Below, piece after piece: positions 23,562 to 29,394 of a stretch of DNA of 64,000 nt. Location: the NCBI GenBank assembly GCA_963806755.1, contig CAWDZR010000016.1, positions 153,948 through 217,947 on the forward strand, given 5' to 3'. The notes under the pieces are model-generated. The model ran no database searches. It worked only from the letters and a program-made list of their open reading frames with translations, and was not told where the DNA came from. The stretch's first letter is position 1. The number at the start of each line of letters is the position of its first letter. Made by a program: the position numbers and the translations under genes. This stretch comes from an uncultured Gemmatimonadales bacterium. GTDB lineage: Bacteria; Gemmatimonadota; Gemmatimonadetes; Gemmatimonadales; JACORV01.

Positions 23562-25403
23562 CTACTCGAGAAGCTCCAAGTCCAAGCTATCTATAGCGCT
23601 ATCCAGCGTCGGGTCACGCTGGCGCAGGGCCTTCACGCGCTCCGCCTTGGCGCCCGTGGCGGTGACGCGCTGCGGGAGCGAAGGGGGCACCGGGGGCGGG
23701 TTCGGGACGGAACCCGCCGGGGCGGCGGGCACCGCCGAGGCCTCCCGGACCGCGCCCGGACCGCCGCCGCCGGGTCGCGCGGGTGCCGCCTCGGAGACCA
23801 CGACGCGGACGCGGGCGCCGGTCACCTGCTCGACGATGGTCTCGACGGCCGAGCGGTTCCGGCTCAATCCCTCCGCCGTCATCGGGTTGAGACCGCGGGT
23901 CCGCAGGCGCAAGGCGCCGTCCTCGAGCTCCGCCGGCTCGGCGTCCTCGAGCGCGTTGCCCACCATCGGCTTCTGGGCCTTGGCGGCCGCGACGACGTCG
24001 GGCCAGGCGGCGACGAGCGACGCGAGCGACACGGCACCGCCGGCCACCGCGGGCGCAGGAGCCACATCCTCCGGCTGCGGCGACGCGACGCGCTCGGCAG
24101 GCGCCGCGGCGGACGCCGGCCCCGGCGGCGCGGCAGGCGGCGTCGGCGGCGCCCCGGCGTCGCGCACCAGCCTGGGGGGTGGTGGTGGGGCCTGCCCTCT
24201 GCCCCCTCCCGACTCGTAACCACTTCGCAACTTGGCGTCTCGCAACTGACCTGAAGGCTCACCTCTGAGCAACTCCGCGATCTGCACGGTGCGATCCATG
24301 AGCGTCCATCGCACCAGCAGCGTCTCGATCGCCAGTCGCGCGTTGGCGCCGCGCCGGATCGGCTCCTCCGCCTCCTCGAGGGCGCGGAGCATGCGCAGCA
24401 GGTCGCCGGGCTCGAACGACGGCGCGGCCGCGACGACGCGGGCCGCGAGGCCGGACGCGAGGCCGGCGGGCTGCCCGCCGAGGCGCGTGGCCAGGAGCGC
24501 GCGCAGCACGTCGCCCGCCCCGTCCACGAACGGGGCGAGGTCCACGCCGGCGTCCGCCAGTCGCGCCACGAACGGGAAAACGTCCGCCGCCCGGCGCGCG
24601 GCGACCAGGTCCAGCAGCTCCGCGAACACCTCGTCGCCCACCAGGCCGAGCACCTGCCGCACGCGCTCCGCGGTCAGCGGGCCCTCGCCGAAGGCCGTCG
24701 CCTGGTCGAGCACCGAGAGCGCGTCCCGCAGGCCGCCGTCGGCCACGCGCGCGATGATCTCGACCGCGTCGGGCTCGGCGCTCAGGCCTTCCTGGGCGAG
24801 GACGCTGCGCAACCGCTCGGCGATCGCCGGCGCGCCGACGCGGCGGAAGTCGAACCGCTGCAGCCGGCTCATCACGGGCGCGGCGGTGTTGCCGATCTTG
24901 TGCGGCTCGGTGGTGGCGAAGACGAACACGACGCCGGGCGGCGGCTCCTCCAGGATCTTCAGGAGCGCGTTCCAGGCGTCGCGGGTGAGCATGTGGGCTT
25001 CGTCCACGATGTAGACCTTGTGGCGGCCCTCCTGCGACGCGGCGTACATCGCCCGCTCCCGCAGGTCGCGCGCGTCGTCCACGCCGCGGTTGCTCGCCGC
25101 GTCGATCTCGACCACGTCGAGGCTCGCCGACCCCGCCCAGATCCGCCGGCACGACGCGCACTCGCCGCACGGCTCCCCCGGGGCGGCCGTCGCCGTGCCG
25201 GCGTGCCGCGCTTCGCAGTTCAGGGCCATGGCGAGGATGCGGGCCGCCGTCGTCTTGCCCACGCCGCGCGGCCCGGCGAACAGGTACCCGTGCGCCACCT
25301 TGCCCTGCTCCACCGCGCCGCGCAGCGCGCGGGCGACGTGGTCCTGCGCGATCAGGTCGCCGAACAGTCGCGGACGATATTTCCGGGCCAGGGCGAGGTA
25401 CAT
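23562..25403 (-). CDS. dnaX: DNA polymerase III subunit gamma/tau
   Basis: MYLALARKYRP..F.DLI.Q.HV...L......GKVAHGYLF.GPRGVGKTT.ARI.A..LNC, a zinc module (CGECASC), and KVYI.DEAHMLT. Long Pro/Ala-rich variable C-terminal half. Confidence 0.95.
   Translation of the reverse strand: MYLALARKYRPRLFGDLIAQDHVARALRGAVEQGKVAHGYLFAGPRGVGKTTAARILAMALNCEARHAGTATAAPGEPCGECASCRRIWAGSASLDVVEIDAASNRGVDDARDLRERAMYAASQEGRHKVYIVDEAHMLTRDAWNALLKILEEPPPGVVFVFATTEPHKIGNTAAPVMSRLQRFDFRRVGAPAIAERLRSVLAQEGLSAEPDAVEIIARVADGGLRDALSVLDQATAFGEGPLTAERVRQVLGLVGDEVFAELLDLVAARRAADVFPFVARLADAGVDLAPFVDGAGDVLRALLATRLGGQPAGLASGLAARVVAAAPSFEPGDLLRMLRALEEAEEPIRRGANARLAIETLLVRWTLMDRTVQIAELLRGEPSGQLRDAKLRSGYESGGGRGQAPPPPPRLVRDAGAPPTPPAAPPGPASAAAPAERVASPQPEDVAPAPAVAGGAVSLASLVAAWPDVVAAAKAQKPMVGNALEDAEPAELEDGALRLRTRGLNPMTAEGLSRNRSAVETIVEQVTGARVRVVVSEAAPARPGGGGPGAVREASAVPAAPAGSVPNPPPVPPSLPQRVTATGAKAERVKALRQRDPTLDSAIDSLDLELLE
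24218..24250. repeat. Solo arm of the AGTTGCGAG-type inverted-repeat element, embedded in frame in dnaX
   Basis: aaccacttcgcaacttggcgtctcgcaactgacc, compared with aaccactcgcaactcggcgtctcgcaactcaact at 25905-25938. It encodes ..GQLRDAKLRSGYE.. in the DnaX variable region. Confidence 0.55.
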
Positions 25404-25441
25404 ATCAGAGTTGCCAGATGGCGAGTTGACAGGTGTCAGGG

Positions 25442-25580
25442 AAGTTGCGAGACGCCAAGTTGCGAGTGGTCACGAGACGCGAGTCAGCGGCACGCAGACG
25501 AGTCAGCAGTTGCCAACAACCGGTCTCACGTCGGCAGTCTCCGGTCTGTGAACCACTCGCAACTCGGCGTCTCACCACTT
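25442..25580. repeat. MITE-like long imperfect hairpin element (copy 1) between ffs and dnaX
   Basis: Terminal inverted repeats: aagttgcgagacgccaagttgcgagtggt (25442-25470) and aaccactcgcaactcggcgtctcaccactt (25551-25580). The interior is also partially self-complementary. Confidence 0.6.
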
Positions 25581-25623
25581 CACTGCAGTCCGCCAGGCCG
25601 ACTGACTGATCACCGTGCAGGTT

Positions 25624-25730
25624 GGAGTGCCCCAGGCACCCCGCCGCGACGTGGGACATCACTTAGCGCTGCTGCCTTCGGGGCTCTGACGCGGTTCGTG
25701 CGCCCTCGCCCGACGGACCTGGGGCACCTC
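25624..25730 (-). ncRNA. ffs: Signal recognition particle RNA (small, 4.5S-type)
   Basis: Minus-strand RNA: GGUGCCCCAGG...CGUCAGAGCCCCGAAGGCAGCAGCGCUAAGUGAUG...CCUGGGGCAC. The ends form a 10-bp closing helix. The apical GUCAG..GAAGG.AGCAGC..AAG.GA resembles the conserved domain IV of E. coli 4.5S RNA (GUCAGGUCCGGAAGGAAGCAGCCAAGGCAGA). It sits immediately upstream of dnaX, as in Bacillus subtilis scr-dnaX. Ends are approximate. Confidence 0.8.
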
Positions 25731-25783
25731 AAGGTAGCATGTCGGCATCTGGGAGACCAGTTGCGAGGCACGAGTCTGCAGAA

Positions 25784-25938
25784 CAGTTGTGAGACGCCGA
25801 GTTGCGAGCGGTTACGAGATGCGAGTTGCCGGCAGGAGAGCAAGCCCCGCGGCAGCCCCGTAGCCGCCCGAGGGCTGTTCTCGCACGGCTTCCTCACATC
25901 TCACAACCACTCGCAACTCGGCGTCTCGCAACTCAACT
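25784..25938. repeat. MITE-like long imperfect hairpin element (copy 2) between kdpE and ffs
   Basis: Terminal inverted repeats: cagttgtgagacgccgagttgcgagcggt (25784-25812) and aaccactcgcaactcggcgtctcgcaactcaact (25905-25938). The segment after the left arm (tacgagatgcgagt) parallels copy 1 (cacgagacgcgagt). Confidence 0.6.
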
Positions 25939-25955
25939 GACCCCCGACATCCTCC

Positions 25956-26648
25956 TCACTCCGCCTTGAGCCGGTAGCCGACGCCGGATTCGGTGAGCAG
26001 GTACCGCGGCCGGGACGGCTCCACCTCGAGCTTGTGCCTGAGCTGCGTCATGTACACCCGCACGTAGTGCGCATGCTCCACCGCGTTCGGCCCCCACGCC
26101 TCCTTCAGCAGCTGGCGGTGCGTGACCACCTTGCCCGCATGGTGCACCAGGGTGGTGAGCAGCTTGTACTCGATCGGCGTGAGGTGGACCTCGGCGCCGC
26201 CCCGGTACACCAGTCGCGCGGCGAGGTCCACCTTCAGATCGCCCACGGTGAAGACCGGATCGCCGTCTTCGGCGCTCGCGACGCGGCGCAGGGCGACGCG
26301 GAGCCGTGCGAGCAGCTCGCCAAGGCCGAACGGCTTGGTGAGGTAGTCGTCGGCGCCGGCGTCCAGCGCGGCGATCTTGTCCTGTTCGCGGCCGCGGGCG
26401 GAGATGACGATGATCGGCGTCCGGGACCACTCCCGGACGCGGCGCGTCAGCTCGAGGCCGTCCAGGTCGGGCAGGCCGAGGTCGAGGAGGATGACGTCGG
26501 GGTTGCGGCCGGTGGCCTGGGCGAGGCCCTCGCGCGCGGTCACCGCCTCGACGATGCGGTAGTCGTGCGCCTCGAGCGACGCCTTCAGGAAGCGTCGCAT
26601 CTGGGGCTCGTCTTCGATGACCAGGATCGTCGGCGCTACGTCGCTCAT
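25956..26648 (-). CDS. kdpE: Response regulator KdpE (OmpR family)
   Basis: Track ORF 25956..26714, with the start at ATG 26648. Sequence: MSDVAPTILVIEDEPQMRRFL..DLGLPDLDG..ISARG.E.DKI.ALDAGADDYLTKPF..LTP.EYKLL..L..HAGKV.T...LL...WG. Lies downstream of kdpD. Confidence 0.9.
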   Translation of the reverse strand: MSDVAPTILVIEDEPQMRRFLKASLEAHDYRIVEAVTAREGLAQATGRNPDVILLDLGLPDLDGLELTRRVREWSRTPIIVISARGREQDKIAALDAGADDYLTKPFGLGELLARLRVALRRVASAEDGDPVFTVGDLKVDLAARLVYRGGAEVHLTPIEYKLLTTLVHHAGKVVTHRQLLKEAWGPNAVEHAHYVRVYMTQLRHKLEVEPSRPRYLLTESGVGYRLKAE

Positions 26649-26673
26649 GGGGCCGCCCGCGAGGTGGCAGAAG

Positions 26674-29394
26674 CTAACTCGCGGCGGGCTCCCCCGGAAC
26701 GCCTTCGGGCACACGCGTGGCCAGGGGCAGCGAGAAGCGGAACATGGCGCCGCCGCCGGGCCTGTTCTCGGCCCAGATGCGCCCGCCGTGGGCCGTCAGG
26801 ATGCCGCGGCAGATGGTGAGGCCCAGGCCGACGCCGCCGCCACTGCCCTCCGGGACGGCACCCGGGACGCGGTAGAACTTCTCGAACACCCGCGCTTCCT
26901 CCCCGGGCGCGAAGCCCGGGCCGCGGTCGGCCACGTTCACGGTCACCTGGCCGTCGGCCGCGGCGGCCGAGATCTCGATCGCGGTGCCGGCCGGCGTGTA
27001 CTTGGCGGCGTTCTCGAGCAGATTGACGAACACCTGCTCGACGAGGAGCCCGTCGATCCACAGCAGCGGCAGGTCGGCCGGCAGCGACACTTGCACCGGA
27101 TGCCCCTTGAGCCGCTCCTCGAGCCGAATCAGCGCGACGCCGACCACCTCCTCGAGCGGCTGCCAGTCGCGCTGCACCTCCAGCGCTCCCGTCTCGACGC
27201 GGATCATGTCGAGCAGGTTGCCGATGAGGCGGTTCATCCGCTGCGCCTCTTCCAGGATGGCGGTCAGCAGATCGCGCCGGGTGGCGTCCGCGAGCGCCCC
27301 GCGGTCCTCGAGCAGGCTGCTGGCCGCGCCGGTGATCGCGCCCAGCGGCGTACGCATGTCGTGCGAGAGGGACGAGAGCAACGCCGTCCGCAGCCGCTCC
27401 GCCTCCGCCTCGACCTGCTCCTGCTGGGCGCGCTCGCCGAGGTTGACGCGCTCCAGCGCCAGGGCCGCCTGGCCGGCGAGCGCCTCGAGCAGCCGCTGCA
27501 GCCCGGGATCCTGGAGGCGCTGCGGCACGTCGGACCGGAGGCCCACGACGCCGACCGTGCCGGAGGAGCCGATCAGCGGCAGGTAGAGCGCCTGGGCGGC
27601 CGGCAGCGTATCGGTACCCGCGCCGGCGGGGTGGCTCCGCTCGAACACCCACTGCGCGACGCTGCGCTCCTTCTCGTCGAGAGGATAGGCGGGGGGCGCG
27701 CCCACCGGGATCTCGAGCCGCCCCGCCGCGTCGGGCAGCAAGATCAGCGCCCGGCCGCCGAATCCGGCTTCCAGCTGCCGGCCGGCCGCGACGGCCACGC
27801 CGCTCCGGCCCCGCGTGGCCGCCAGCTCCCGGCTCATCGCGTACAGCGCCGCCGTCCGCTGCTCGCGCTCGCGCGCCGCCTCGGCCTGGGCGCGGATCCG
27901 CAGCGTCAGCGCGCTGATCAGCAGCGCGATGGTGAGCATCACCACGAAGGTCAGCACGTAGCGGATGTCGGAGACGGCGAAGGTGTAATACGGCGGCACG
28001 AAGAAGAAGTCGAACAGGGCGATGCTGATCAGCGCCGCGGACACCGAGGGCCCGCGGCCGTACCGCGAGGCCACGACGCCTGCGCCGAGCAGGTACACCA
28101 TCGCGACGTCGGTGACGGTGAGGTAGCGGAACACCAGCGCGGCCACCACCGTGGCGGCCGCGACGATCAGCCCGGCCGACGCGTACTCGTCGAGCGGCGA
28201 GCGCCGGACCGCGCGGCCGGCCCGGCGCCGGCGCCGCGGCTCGCCCTCGACGTCGCCGCTGATCGCGTACACGTCCACGTCGCCGCTGCCCCGGACCAGC
28301 TGGTCGAGCAGCGACCCGAAGACCTTGTCGCGCCAGCGCGGATGGGTGGGCTTGCCCACCACGATCTTGGTGACGTTGTGGGCCCGCGCGTAGGCCAGGA
28401 TCTCCTCGGCCGCATGGTGGCCGCTCAGCGTCGCCGTCGCCGCCCCCAGCGACTCGGCGAGCTGGAGGTTGGCGACCAGCGCCTCGCGGTCCGCGGGCGA
28501 GACCGCCTGGCCCGGGCGCTCGACGTACGCCACCCGCCACTCGCACTTGAGGCCCGTCGCCATCCGCTTGCCGGCGCGCACCAGCCGCGCGCCCTCGGGG
28601 TTCGGGCCGATGCACACCAGCAGCCGCTCGCCCGCGGGCCACGTGGCGTGGATCCCGGCCTCGCGCATGTAGCCGCGCATCTGCGCGTCCACGCGCTCGG
28701 CGGCACGGCGCAGCGTCAGCTCCCGGAGCGCGATCAGGTTGCCCTTCCGGAAGAACCGCTCGATCGCCGCCGCGGCCTGCTCGGGCACGTACACCTTCCC
28801 CTGCCGCAGCCGGGCGAGGAGGTCGTCCGCCGAGAGATCGGCCAGCTCGATCTCGTCCGCCTGGTCGAACACGGCGTCGGGGAGCGTCTCGCGCACCGTG
28901 ACGCCGGTGATCTGGGCCACCACGTCGTTGAGGCTCTCGAGGTGCTGGACGTTCAAGGTGGAATAGACGCTGATGCCCGCCGACAGCAGCTCCTCGACGT
29001 CCTGCCAGCGCTTGGCGTGGCGCGAGCCGGGCGCGTTGGTGTGGGCCAGCTCGTCCACCAGGAGGATCCCCGGCCGGCGCTGCAGGGCCGCGTCGAGGTC
29101 GAATTCCTGGAGGGTGATGCCGCGGTACTCGATCGGGTGCCGGGGCAGCACGGCGAGCCCCTCGGCGAGGGCGGCCGTCTCGGGGCGGCCGTGGGTTTCC
29201 ACCACCCCCATGACCACGTCCGCGCCGTCCCGCAGCTGGGCGCGCGCCGCCTCGAGCATGGCGAACGTCTTGCCGACGCCGGGCGCGGCGCCGAAGAAGA
29301 TCTTGAGGCGCCCGCGCGACGCGCGCCGTTCCTCCTCGTGCGCCTGCGCGAGGAGCGCTTCGGGATCGGGCCGGCGAGGCTCGGAGGGCGTCAC
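26674..29394 (-). CDS. kdpD: Sensor histidine kinase KdpD
   Basis: 906 aa. N-terminal KdpD domain (GRLKIFFGAAPGVGKTFAMLEAA), a Usp domain, a 4-TM block, GAF-like region, H-box (SLSHDMRTPL) and an HATPase domain (NLLENAAKYTP..DRGPG..GVGLGLTICRGI). Confidence 0.95.
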   Translation of the reverse strand: MTPSEPRRPDPEALLAQAHEEERRASRGRLKIFFGAAPGVGKTFAMLEAARAQLRDGADVVMGVVETHGRPETAALAEGLAVLPRHPIEYRGITLQEFDLDAALQRRPGILLVDELAHTNAPGSRHAKRWQDVEELLSAGISVYSTLNVQHLESLNDVVAQITGVTVRETLPDAVFDQADEIELADLSADDLLARLRQGKVYVPEQAAAAIERFFRKGNLIALRELTLRRAAERVDAQMRGYMREAGIHATWPAGERLLVCIGPNPEGARLVRAGKRMATGLKCEWRVAYVERPGQAVSPADREALVANLQLAESLGAATATLSGHHAAEEILAYARAHNVTKIVVGKPTHPRWRDKVFGSLLDQLVRGSGDVDVYAISGDVEGEPRRRRRAGRAVRRSPLDEYASAGLIVAAATVVAALVFRYLTVTDVAMVYLLGAGVVASRYGRGPSVSAALISIALFDFFFVPPYYTFAVSDIRYVLTFVVMLTIALLISALTLRIRAQAEAAREREQRTAALYAMSRELAATRGRSGVAVAAGRQLEAGFGGRALILLPDAAGRLEIPVGAPPAYPLDEKERSVAQWVFERSHPAGAGTDTLPAAQALYLPLIGSSGTVGVVGLRSDVPQRLQDPGLQRLLEALAGQAALALERVNLGERAQQEQVEAEAERLRTALLSSLSHDMRTPLGAITGAASSLLEDRGALADATRRDLLTAILEEAQRMNRLIGNLLDMIRVETGALEVQRDWQPLEEVVGVALIRLEERLKGHPVQVSLPADLPLLWIDGLLVEQVFVNLLENAAKYTPAGTAIEISAAAADGQVTVNVADRGPGFAPGEEARVFEKFYRVPGAVPEGSGGGVGLGLTICRGILTAHGGRIWAENRPGGGAMFRFSLPLATRVPEGVPGEPAAS

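Follow-up and report, generated by a model that had tools for sequence, protein, structure and literature searches.

The window analysed here, a 64,000-nt stretch of DNA from an uncultured Gemmatimonadales bacterium, carries the ffs gene for the small bacterial SRP RNA at 25626–25725 (Rfam RF00169, 41.8 bits relative to a gathering score of 40, full model length). The gene lies on the minus strand, an orientation missed in the initial annotation, as do its neighbours: upstream, at 25956–26714, a gene encoding a kdpE-like OmpR-family response regulator (Pfam PF00072 and PF00486) and downstream, at 23562–25403, dnaX encoding DNA polymerase III gamma/tau. KdpD (Pfam PF02702) is encoded at 26674–29394. 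On either side ffs is flanked, without being interrupted, by a long hairpin. Hairpin copy 1 (25437–25585, 149 nt) is located between ffs and the dnaX start codon, with arms at about 25437–25483 and 25539–25585. Hairpin copy 2 (25779–25939, 161 nt) is located between the stop codon of the kdpE-like gene and ffs, i.e., upstream of ffs by the direction of transcription, with arms at about 25779–25825 and 25893–25939. Both copies are of the GAG subtype described below and no strand was assigned to either. The initial annotation had placed the pair correctly with slightly narrower spans; the limits used here were set by the family consensus ends CAGnn(C/G)AGTTGC...GCAACTGnnCTG.

The 23-nt arm sequence AACCACTCGCAACTCGGCGTCTC was matched four times in the window with no more than 3 mismatches (25449–25471(-), 25551–25573(+), 25791–25813(-) and 25905–25927(+)) and in none of 100 dinucleotide shuffles, which confirmed the bracketing of ffs by two hairpins. 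The repeat search identified an inverted pair of 52 nt within copy 1 (77% identity) and of 41 nt within copy 2 (88%), as well as direct repeats between the copies (50 nt at 84% and 54 nt at 76%). The bare 9-mer AGTTGCGAG, with at most one mismatch, was found 15 times across the window relative to 13.5 expected; the count itself showed no window-wide excess, and the repeat signal lies in the clustering, with 10 of the 15 matches in 25409–25933 and two more in a solo arm within dnaX. An extra degenerate terminal unit ("stub", 25758–25778, no strand assigned) is present outside copy 2, in an arrangement seen also in loci L017, L023 and L034, and the degenerate outer units of copy 1, GAGTTGCCAGATGGCGAGTTGACAGG (25405–25436, no strand assigned), extend to the dnaX start codon. 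The loose units noticed earlier at 25408, 25423 and 25758 are real degenerate terminal units, and the terminal 25-nt unit is repeated in tandem 3–4 times in relatives (25-nt arrays in L016/L017). The interior of copy 2 is of a type marked by an apical G+C hairpin, common to the orthologous copy in L170 and copies at other loci (it clusters with L170, L055, L017 and L029), and no relative of the copy 1 interior was found among the sampled elements. A local duplication was ruled out: the two copies have unrelated interiors, their arms are spread over hundreds of loci, and in relatives both copies are found in the same places.

Both copies folded far better than shuffled sequences on either strand, with minus-strand energies of -84.6 kcal/mol (z -8.0) and -110.1 kcal/mol (z -12.9). 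Neither hairpin matched an Rfam 15 family at the gathering score, and the sub-threshold matches were to generic long-hairpin miRNA models (MIR831, 34 bits with a gathering score of 100; mir-48, 24 with a gathering score of 69). A scan for Rho-independent terminators in 25300–26100 returned no sites, and the stems are not followed by a U tract; hence, the terminator role suggested earlier does not hold in the sense of a canonical intrinsic terminator. Some interiors in the family contain GGCCCCG...CGGGGCC followed by a T/C-rich stretch. Roles of the hairpins as terminators or insulators, as processing sites or as arrays of protein-binding sites are plausible. An integron attC identity was rejected: the cores TCGCAAC...GTTGCGA do not fit RYYYAAC...GTTRRRY at R position 1 and at RRR, and the copies stand singly between housekeeping genes (kdpE, ffs, dnaX, rrn) rather than in cassette arrays.

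Eight ffs loci were compared, seven of them distinct (L050 duplicates L049). The upstream copy was present at all eight (seven distinct), including all seven from other genomes, even where the upstream gene differed. The downstream copy was present in L046, L047 and L170, reduced to a solo arm in L048 and absent from L049 and L130. Compared with the last two, which represent empty sites, the inserted block corresponds to the entire ffs–dnaX spacer, with a possible 4-nt TGAT duplication at that one site. In L170, a GAG copy lies upstream of ffs and a CAG copy downstream. The alignment of the seven ffs loci also revealed a conserved block, AACTGGTCTCC-N13-TGCTACCTT, directly upstream of ffs (25731–25762, minus strand), ending 5 nt ahead of the first base of the Rfam match. 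Its upstream half is a terminal unit of the repeat family (GCAACTGnnCTG). The block looks like an extended -10 promoter, a putative function read from its sequence, and a scan of the ffs region for the sigma-70 promoter consensus gave no match. The RNA of the region can adopt two alternative folds. In one, the two hairpins form locally (-312.6 kcal/mol); in the other, a nested stalk carries ffs at its tip (-316.8 kcal/mol). The same holds for L046 and L047.

A third copy of the arm, not noticed in the initial annotation, was detected with an nhmmer arm profile (51 bits) at 24192–24267 on the minus strand, in the dnaX reading frame. This solo arm is translated as ...GQLRDAKLRSGYESGGG... after DnaX domain III and occupies the same codon position in five genomes including the window (L046, L047, L048 and L049 being the others), with an extra in-frame 24-nt unit in L048. 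Copies of Rickettsia palindromic elements are likewise inserted in frame within protein-coding genes. The solo arm in the DnaX linker resembles them in this respect; it differs in that half an element resides in the gene and in that its codon position is conserved in five genomes. Rickettsia palindromic elements are mentioned in PMC3733652.

Copies 1 and 2 belong to a palindromic repeat family of an uncultured Gemmatimonadales clade. An exact 22-mer of the arm was found at 45 loci in eight Gemmatimonadales MAGs and nowhere else among 185,579 species genomes, and a subtype-degenerate 26-mer gave at least 120 metagenome matches. No arm matches were present among 2.9 million viral contigs and a phage origin was therefore rejected. 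In the sample on which the family description is based, 1.16 Mb of sequence around the arms, 325 arm matches and 107 elements with both cores were recorded, 98 of them short (median 155 nt, IQR 148–158) and nine long (463–535 nt). With over 300 sites in uncultured Gemmatimonadales, the arms define a dispersed multi-copy family, and the copies around ffs are neither confined to this locus nor the product of a local duplication, the outcome that would have refuted the initial annotation.

Each arm, 35–45 nt long across the family, is an array of at least five (G/C)AG-led units of 7–8 nt (CAGnn CAGTTGC GAGACGCC GAGTTGC GAGTGGTTAC GAGA...), the opposite arm being its complement. The arms are conserved far beyond the neutral rate, with cores identical between genomes whose enclosed gene shows dS of 0.4–3. 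The interiors of short elements are heterogeneous, 50 of 98 being singletons. There are two compensating arm subtypes, GAG and CAG, the compensated changes hitting the first base of each triplet (arm positions 0, 8, 15, 25 and 32). Counts of the subtypes were 200 for GG, 116 for CC and 29 for mixed; within one element, the arms agreed in 72 cases, were fully opposite (CC with GG) in three and included a mixed-type arm in 11. The idea of one arm subtype per genome was rejected as GAG and CAG coexist in six of 21 multi-element loci; six of eight contigs were homogeneous (p = 0.18).

The family prefers the 3' ends of genes. Short elements were found in 26 convergent, 39 co-directional and two divergent spacers compared with 72, 574 and 77, respectively, for element-free spacers (chi-square p = 3e-11), and their median distance from the stop codon was 9 nt. 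Solo arms upstream of gene starts carried the purine strand as sense 32 times and the opposite orientation five times. A G:U versus A:C asymmetry tracking transcription was sought in co-directional contexts and gave no signal (about five cases consistent and five not), hence nothing to indicate that one RNA strand is under selection, as opposed to DNA or both strands. Besides ffs, elements were seen near several stable RNA genes, namely two tRNA-Ser genes interleaved with elements in L023, a tRNA-Ser in L157, tRNA-Gln/Ala in L109 and the 5S end in L022. Enrichment beside stable-RNA genes was not detectable: the count, about four of 120 loci selected by arm, does not exceed what would roughly be expected. 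Copies at orthologous sites were found at the eight ffs loci (seven distinct) and at a tRNA-Gln/Ala locus.

The distance separating the two arms of a pair has a bimodal distribution, being at most 62 nt in 95 pairs and 415–428 nt in 10. Each of these 10 wide pairs contains an ORF of the PF05635 family (S23p/23S-rRNA IVS protein, Avd-like), the only gene found between arms in 106 arm pairs of the 1.16-Mb sample. The gene-carrying form is about 535 nt long and all of its copies are at one conserved locus, between a metallophosphoesterase gene and deoxyhypusine synthase. The cargo gene is under strong purifying selection (median dN/dS of 0.075) and encodes a four-helix-bundle protein of 124 aa. 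A tblastn search of the 64-kb window with the L011 protein as the query found no PF05635 gene. Two residue differences of the protein, LHE versus LDE and ATVDE versus ATRDE, correlate with the subtype of the flanking arms in nine of nine loci, a count that includes the degenerate single arm of L053 as CAG and comes from few independent lineages. The match holds in L075 and L163, although the adjacent host gene of these loci shows the opposite grouping.

PF05635 genes of other organisms are arranged similarly. The nine genes checked (Gemmatirosa, Calothrix, two Nostoc, Azospirillum, Leptolyngbya, Pseudanabaena, X. citri and the XCC0516 orthologue of X. campestris) were all flanked by lineage-specific 7–8-mer arrays, forming paired inverted arms that bracket the gene in eight; among the arrays listed for Pseudanabaena, those seen were upstream. 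The Gemmatirosa unit was found again at 22 places, one of which is an ORF-less hairpin, and in Xanthomonas the S23p gene (XCC0516 orthologue) lies between arrays of a GGGAATC-type unit. PF05635 is the exclusive cargo of the family, and a PF05635 gene between inverted 7–8-mer arrays is a general arrangement. Dispersed arrays of this same type of unit, GGGAATC, are highly enriched in Xanthomonas, with 70–75 inverted pairs (Rehm et al. 2015, PMC4692102). These and the Nostoc GGGGA(T/C)T arrays were published as G-quadruplex-forming simple repeats, with no link to S23p (PMC4692102). They resemble the elements described here as dispersed intergenic arrays of a lineage-specific heptamer, and the GGGAATC arrays also as often convergent inverted pairs able to form stem-loops. 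In contrast to them, Gemmatimonadales units are not rich in G tracts and the arms have a fixed order of non-identical units. Outside subscription journals, a literature search gave no paper that connects PF05635/S23p with heptamer arrays or with dispersed hairpins, nor any about repeats of Gemmatimonadota.

The connection with PF05635 and rRNA intervening sequences (IVSs), which had escaped the initial annotation, comes from the ORF-containing 23S IVSs of Coxiella burnetii and Leptospira (PMC4990558). The Coxiella IVS has a 28-bp terminal stem cleaved by RNase III and GACAGAT heptamers upstream of S23p (PMC4990558). Shared features are the long inverted-repeat stem around a PF05635/S23p ORF, the overall size of about 430–540 nt, the purine-rich heptamers upstream of the ORF and the existence of short ORF-less hairpins. 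Unlike IVSs, the elements lie outside rRNA genes; in L022, where one is found 80 nt after the 5S gene, the 23S gene fits the full Rfam model without a large insertion. The long form is placed between two protein genes, each genome contains a dozen or more dispersed short forms and strong purifying selection acts on the ORF, whereas the Coxiella ORF is decaying. The gene-less hairpins and the PF05635-carrying copy link hairpins built from dispersed heptamer arrays to the intervening sequences of rRNA and to a protein family of unknown function.

The hairpins are gene-less short forms (about 155 nt) of the PF05635-carrying palindromic family and probably act through RNA duplexes that delimit or process transcripts. 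For the ffs-flanking copies, the most likely function by comparison with IVSs is the formation of long RNA duplexes delimiting or processing the ffs transcript, in the manner of the RNase III excision of IVSs. Each transcribed copy, or both copies together, would give rise to a 35–60-bp RNA duplex, which would stop or delimit transcripts and serve as an RNase III substrate as IVS stems do. At this locus, such duplexes would keep the precursor of ffs apart from the messages of kdpE and dnaX. RNase III cleavage and termination are proposed by analogy only. The downstream copy is dispensable, being absent in L049 and L130 and halved in L048. The ffs promoter region appears to have co-opted the outermost unit of the upstream copy, and the PF05635 protein is the candidate cognate factor.

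Other palindromic repeats of about 100–160 nt, such as Correia elements in Neisseria and ERIC/IRU in enterobacteria, are co-transcribed with neighbouring genes, and Correia hairpins have been reported as RNase III substrates altering transcript stability. Unlike the elements described here, they have defined ends (with a TA duplication for Correia) and are not known to be associated with a PF05635 gene.

Alternatively, the arms may be arrays of binding sites, at the DNA or RNA level, for a PF05635 pentamer, with the hairpins constituting a regulon or partner population and the duplex and RNase III effects being secondary. We regard this as possible but less probable than a primary role of the RNA duplexes. 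The arms are conserved in sequence and not in pairing alone, they contain about five triplet-led units and their two discrete subtypes differ at every unit at once; the two subtype-tracking residues of the protein (nine of nine loci), the sites flanking the PF05635 gene itself in every lineage tested and the 32 to 5 strand bias of solo arms upstream of gene starts point in the same direction. The one relative to have been characterised, Avd, is a subunit that is pentameric and contacts RNA (bioRxiv 10.1101/2023.10.23.563531). On the other hand, binding is predicted from sequence and the residue correlation comes from few independent lineages. The coexistence of both subtypes in six of 21 multi-element loci would demand two protein variants per genome, and Coxiella S23p is apparently not expressed (PMC4990558).

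A related and equally tentative proposal is that PF05635 proteins are cognate sequence-specific partners of the lineage-specific 7–8-mer arrays, in a REPIN-RAYT-like system built on a non-catalytic nucleic-acid-binding protein. Each lineage would then possess one or a few PF05635 genes within inverted arrays of their own unit, together with dispersed gene-less hairpins or arrays built on that unit.

It is improbable that the family represents classical MITEs, i.e., deletion derivatives of an insertion sequence moved in trans by the transposase of that IS, with no host role and an incidental position at ffs. Terminal inverted repeats, a length of about 150 nt, a high copy number and intergenic location would suit MITEs, as would the presence of the ffs–dnaX copy in some genomes and its absence from others, the possible TGAT duplication and the in-frame copy within dnaX. 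However, the elements have no sharp termini, their flanks consisting of outward-decaying periodic units, and no target-site duplication recurred in 35 elements, leaving the TGAT as the single candidate. No transposase was found between any of the 106 arm pairs in the 1.16 Mb around the arms, the sole cargo being the 124-aa PF05635 protein. Arms conserved across genomes with saturated dS around mostly unrelated interiors are unlike the result of a recent copy-and-paste burst, and copies occur at orthologous sites (the eight ffs loci, seven distinct, and the tRNA-Gln/Ala locus). Of the "MITE-like" description in the initial annotation, the part that stands is that the hairpins are short versions, lacking a gene, of a longer element that carries one; the classical MITE traits, target-site duplication, sharp ends and a transposase, are not supported.

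Still less credit can be given to a system of the REP/REPIN type, in which a single-copy Y1 (RAYT) transposase encoded elsewhere in the genome would mobilise and maintain the repeats. The family shares with REPIN-RAYT and REP-BIME systems the long hairpin doublets downstream of genes, the preference for convergent and co-directional spacers, vertical inheritance, lineage-specific sequence types, a single-copy gene flanked by repeats and occasional intragenic copies, including in replication genes (PMC3116915, PMC3733652). In contrast to those systems, a single arm is not a small palindrome with a GTAG- or CGTC-tagged stem-loop, the published criteria specifying an imperfect palindrome of 20–40 nt (PMC3733652), but a direct 7–8-mer array, in which two direct 15-nt repeats form no internal stem-loop. 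The repeat-flanked single-copy gene is PF05635 and not PF01797, coding for a four-helix-bundle protein with no known catalytic activity instead of an HUH tyrosine transposase, and no RAYT was seen in the 1.16 Mb sampled around the arms.

That the hairpins are dedicated maturation signals evolved for the SRP RNA, similar to the processing stalks of rRNA operons, is hardly credible and largely refuted by the family distribution: they do lie on both sides of ffs, pairing between inner and outer arms can place ffs at the tip of a long stalk and the upstream copy accompanies ffs despite differing upstream genes, but the same element is present at hundreds of unrelated loci and, with the downstream copy missing in L049 and L130 and halved in L048, the stalk cannot form there.

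Interspersed palindromic repeats are known in bacteria, and to our knowledge, neither the maintaining factor nor the function is understood for most such families. We also know of no role assigned to PF05635/S23p outside diversity-generating retroelements (DGRs) since its discovery in rRNA intervening sequences about thirty years ago. The conserved arrangement described here, with the gene between inverted 7–8-mer arrays and the arms dispersed in the genome, makes the binding target of S23p a testable question, together with the origin of IVSs and the nature of the enriched Xanthomonas and cyanobacterial heptamer arrays. Xanthomonas and Gemmatirosa are cultured, so these questions can be addressed there. 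If PF05635 proteins are indeed the partners of such arrays, one mechanism would account for the Gemmatimonadales hairpins (including those at ffs), the 23S IVSs, the Xanthomonas GGGAATC arrays and the cyanobacterial heptamer arrays, and PF05635 would have a function outside DGRs. Locally, half an element fixed within the DnaX linker is documented, and the hairpins offer a concrete hypothesis for how the SRP RNA may be insulated from kdpE and dnaX transcription in Gemmatimonadales.

The two hairpins that bracket ffs, the gene of the small SRP RNA, are members of a constrained and dispersed family, the long form of which is an IVS-like element with an S23p gene (PF05635, 23S-rRNA IVS protein). 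The inspection of the sequence confirmed two imperfect palindromes around ffs (25626-25725, minus strand, Rfam), as described in the initial annotation. With ends set by the family consensus, copy 1 spans 25437-25585 and copy 2 25779-25939. Their arms read AGTTG(C/T)GAGACGCC(A/G)AGTTGCGAG(T/C)GGT, with the complement on the other side. The 23-nt arm had four matches with up to three mismatches in the 64-kb window, and none of 100 shuffles gave any match. Folding of both strands, a check proposed earlier, showed each copy to be far more stable than shuffled controls (z from -5.7 to -12.9). The genes neighboring ffs, encoding an OmpR-type response regulator (kdpE) beside KdpD and, on the other side, DnaX and then YbaB, also lie on the minus strand, and therefore the transcriptional order is kdpE, copy 2, ffs, copy 1, dnaX. 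The previously noted loose units (25408, 25423, 25758) correspond to degenerate forms of the family's terminal 25-nt unit. No recognisable Shine-Dalgarno sequence was seen upstream of the dnaX ATG at any of the loci compared (window 25404-25440 and relatives).

Eight ffs loci were compared, seven of them distinct (L050, a stretch from another genome, duplicates L049). The upstream copy was present in all eight, even where an aminotransferase gene replaced kdpE, and in L049 it consisted of the arms alone, a hairpin of minimal size (about 70 nt). Between ffs and dnaX, a complete copy was seen in the window and in L046, L047 and L170, a solo arm (half an element) in L048 and no copy in L049 and L130. 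At loci lacking this downstream element, the end of ffs was only some 40 nt from the start codon of dnaX. The arm subtype varied among orthologous copies, and in L170 the two copies flanking ffs were themselves of different subtypes. A block AACTGGTnTCC-N13/14-TG(C/G)TACCTT-N4/5 preceded the ffs start at every locus. Its upstream half is a terminal unit of the family and, in L048, the element's own last unit. The block is read as a putative extended -10 promoter with a -35 region recruited from the repeat; a consensus scan of the region found no sigma-70 match. For the minus-strand RNA of 25400-25960, two nearly isoenergetic folds were predicted, one with two local hairpins (-312.6 kcal/mol) and one in which the two copies pair arm to arm with each other, giving a nested stalk with ffs at its tip (-316.8 kcal/mol). 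The same alternative folds were predicted in L046 and L047.

A local duplication is rejected as the origin of the two copies, as their arms belong to a family dispersed in Gemmatimonadales. The exact 22-mer ACCACTCGCAACTCGGCGTCTC was found in 45 DNA stretches, all from eight uncultured Gemmatimonadales MAGs and about 30 of them from a single MAG. A subtype-degenerate 26-mer of the arm had at least 120 matches in JGI metagenomes and no match in 2.9 million viral contigs. The arm profile search of 1.16 Mb of sampled sequence detected 325 arms and 107 elements with both arm cores, comprising 98 short, gene-less ones (median 155 nt, IQR 148-158) and nine long ones (463-535 nt). The arms were strongly conserved and the interiors were not: 50 of the 98 short interiors had no relative in the sample, and the others fell into a few classes, one with an apical GGCCCCG...CGGGGCC hairpin and another with CCAGTTGTCAGTACTGACAACTGG. 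Copy 2 has the same interior class as its L170 orthologue, a class also seen in copies at unrelated loci, and the interior of copy 1 is unique in the sample.

From the outside to the inside, the arm reads CAG nn (C/G)AGTTGC GAGACGCC GAGTTGC GAGTGGTTAC GAGAnnn GAG... It is built of triplet-led units with a period of 7-10 nt, with two direct 15-nt repeats as the core. Degenerate units (e.g., CTGCAGACTGCAGACACCGTAGACCTGAGAACGCAGGACAGTTGC) go on into the flanks; the elements therefore lack a sharp end, and no target-site duplication recurs. In some cases the terminal 25-nt unit is repeated three to four times in tandem, as observed for GGCGTCTCGCAACTGTCCTGGTCGT outside an element in L016 (6920-7010) and L017 (4570-4660), two different contigs of the same MAG. 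The initial annotation had considered a MITE; the family differs from MITEs in lacking target-site duplications and a transposase, none being associated with the elements in the 1.16 Mb sampled.

The arms formed two discrete subtypes, GAG and CAG, with each GAG replaced by CAG in the latter and each CTC of the partner arm by CTG. There were 200 GG, 116 CC and only 29 mixed arms. Within one element, the arms agreed in 72 pairs, were fully opposite (CC with GG) in three and included a mixed-type arm in 11. The compensated changes hit exactly the first base of every triplet. Both subtypes can occur in one genome. Between genomes, the gene of the long form had a pairwise dS of 0.4-3, and the 18-nt arm cores beside it were identical within a subtype across the same genomes; the arms therefore change at a far lower rate than neutral sites. 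Homogenisation within genomes alone cannot account for arm identity across species.

The gap between paired arms was bimodal (at most 62 nt in 95 pairs, 415-428 nt in 10, and 182 nt in one). All 10 wide pairs enclosed an ORF of 123-131 aa, which matched Pfam 23S_rRNA_IVP (E = 2e-26) and had as its nearest solved relative XCC0516 of Xanthomonas, an S23p pentamer (PDB 2GSC). The gene was intact in every case, with a median dN/dS of 0.075, and its locus was constant, between a metallophosphoesterase and a deoxyhypusine synthase gene. Relative to the flanking genes it was inverted in L090, L163 and L053/L054, compared with L011, L052, L075, L105, L156 and L051, so inversion by recombination across the arms has occurred. 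The arms were of the GAG type in four genomes and the CAG type in five, including L053, which keeps a weak right arm only. Two S23p residues tracked the arm subtype in 9/9 (LHE vs. LDE, ATVDE vs. ATRDE), also in L075 and L163, though their metallophosphoesterase groups with the opposite set. In L075 (4341) and L100 (5053-5077), a GAG-type solo arm directly adjoined the S23p element on the outer side of its CAG-type arm, and relatives of this host lineage carry GAG-type arms there; it looks as if one subtype had replaced the other or become nested in it.

The PF05635 genes of nine other organisms were all flanked by lineage-specific 7-8-mer arrays: GGAGGGCA in Gemmatirosa, TAGGGTG in Calothrix, TAGGGAG in Nostoc edaphicum, TCAGGAG in N. 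punctiforme, GAGGACA/G in Azospirillum, a GGAGAT-like unit in Leptolyngbya, GCTAAAA in Pseudanabaena and GGGAATC/GGGAGTG around the XCC0516 orthologue in Xanthomonas citri and X. campestris. Paired inverted arms bracketed the gene in 8/9, the arrays of Pseudanabaena being seen upstream, the only side covered; where arms were paired, the purine-rich strand lay upstream in sense orientation. The Gemmatirosa flanking sequence occurred at 22 places on its two megaplasmids and was absent from all other plasmid records; one of the 22 is an ORF-less hairpin of about 95 nt directly past a stop codon. The Xanthomonas gene with its GGGAATC arms is located between accB and accC (L183/L184, 801-1181), which form a tight operon in most bacteria. 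On a Pseudanabaena plasmid (L180, 601-960), the gene with its heptamer arrays is part of a CRISPR-Cas locus, with cas6 on one side and cas4 on the other. Xanthomonas genomes are strongly enriched in GGGAATC arrays, each having 70-75 inverted pairs in convergent orientation; the arrays were read as G-quadruplex repeats with no link to S23p (PMC4692102). The Coxiella 23S rRNA IVS has a 28-bp terminal stem, within which RNase III cuts, and three or four GACAGAT heptamers upstream of the S23p ORF (PMC4990558).

Genomic positions were evaluated with a GC3-based gene caller, which agreed with the reference calls in L047 and L052. Short elements occupied 26 convergent, 39 co-directional and two divergent spacers, compared with 72, 574 and 77 element-free spacers of the same loci (chi-square p = 3e-11), and lay a median of 9 nt from the nearest stop codon. 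Solo arms were a second, polar class: in L001-L174, 32 of 61 had the outer end toward a gene end and the inner end toward a gene start, so that the purine-rich GAG strand is the sense strand, and only five showed the reverse. The 32 lay a median of 30 nt from the start codon. In several solo arms, the inner units merged into a Shine-Dalgarno-like GGAGG (examples of solo arms: L004 6861-6935, L026 5550-5611, L037 1896-1955). Another solo arm was found in frame within dnaX (24192-24267, minus strand, the dnaX sense), directly after domain III. Its translation is QLRDAKLRSGYE, with the peptide stretch GQLRDAKLRSGYESGGG, and it is kept at the identical codon position in L046, L047, L048 and L049, with an additional in-frame 24-nt terminal unit in L048. 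In L046, a CAG-type genome, it is still of the GAG type. Elements also adjoined stable-RNA genes, at a count statistically not above expectation: two tRNA-Ser genes alternated with two elements, one tRNA being 1 nt away from an arm (L023 1967-2542), a tRNA-Gln/tRNA-Ala spacer held a conserved solo arm of the GAG type in L109 (1430-1790) and the CAG type in L079 (6219-6430), an element abutted a tRNA-Ser gene in L157 (187-520), and another lay 80 nt past the 5S rRNA that closes an rrn operon (L022 7362-7522).

In its way of working, the family resembles REP/REPIN, ERIC or Correia repeats, and in its build it resembles an rRNA IVS. Once transcribed, the copies would form RNA duplexes of 35-60 bp. 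Duplexes of such length are in general RNase III substrates, and the scRNA precursor of Bacillus subtilis is processed by RNase III. The stems of IVS are likewise excised by this enzyme (PMC4990558). A role as transcript boundaries would fit the preference of the hairpins for positions just past stop codons. However, the wobble-pair asymmetry does not track the direction of transcription, which speaks against an exclusively RNA-level reading, and the solo arms, polar and placed ahead of genes, point to a further role, possibly in translation or protein binding. S23p is the one protein that stands out as a candidate partner. Unlike REP/REPIN, the family has no tagged palindrome, and no RAYT was seen in the 1.16 Mb sampled around the arms; unlike IVS, its elements lie outside rRNA. 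In the literature, which was incompletely searchable, no paper was found joining S23p, heptamer arrays, dispersed hairpins and IVS. What appears to be new is the putative partnership with PF05635, which seems to be general, extending over Gemmatimonadota, Cyanobacteriota and Pseudomonadota.
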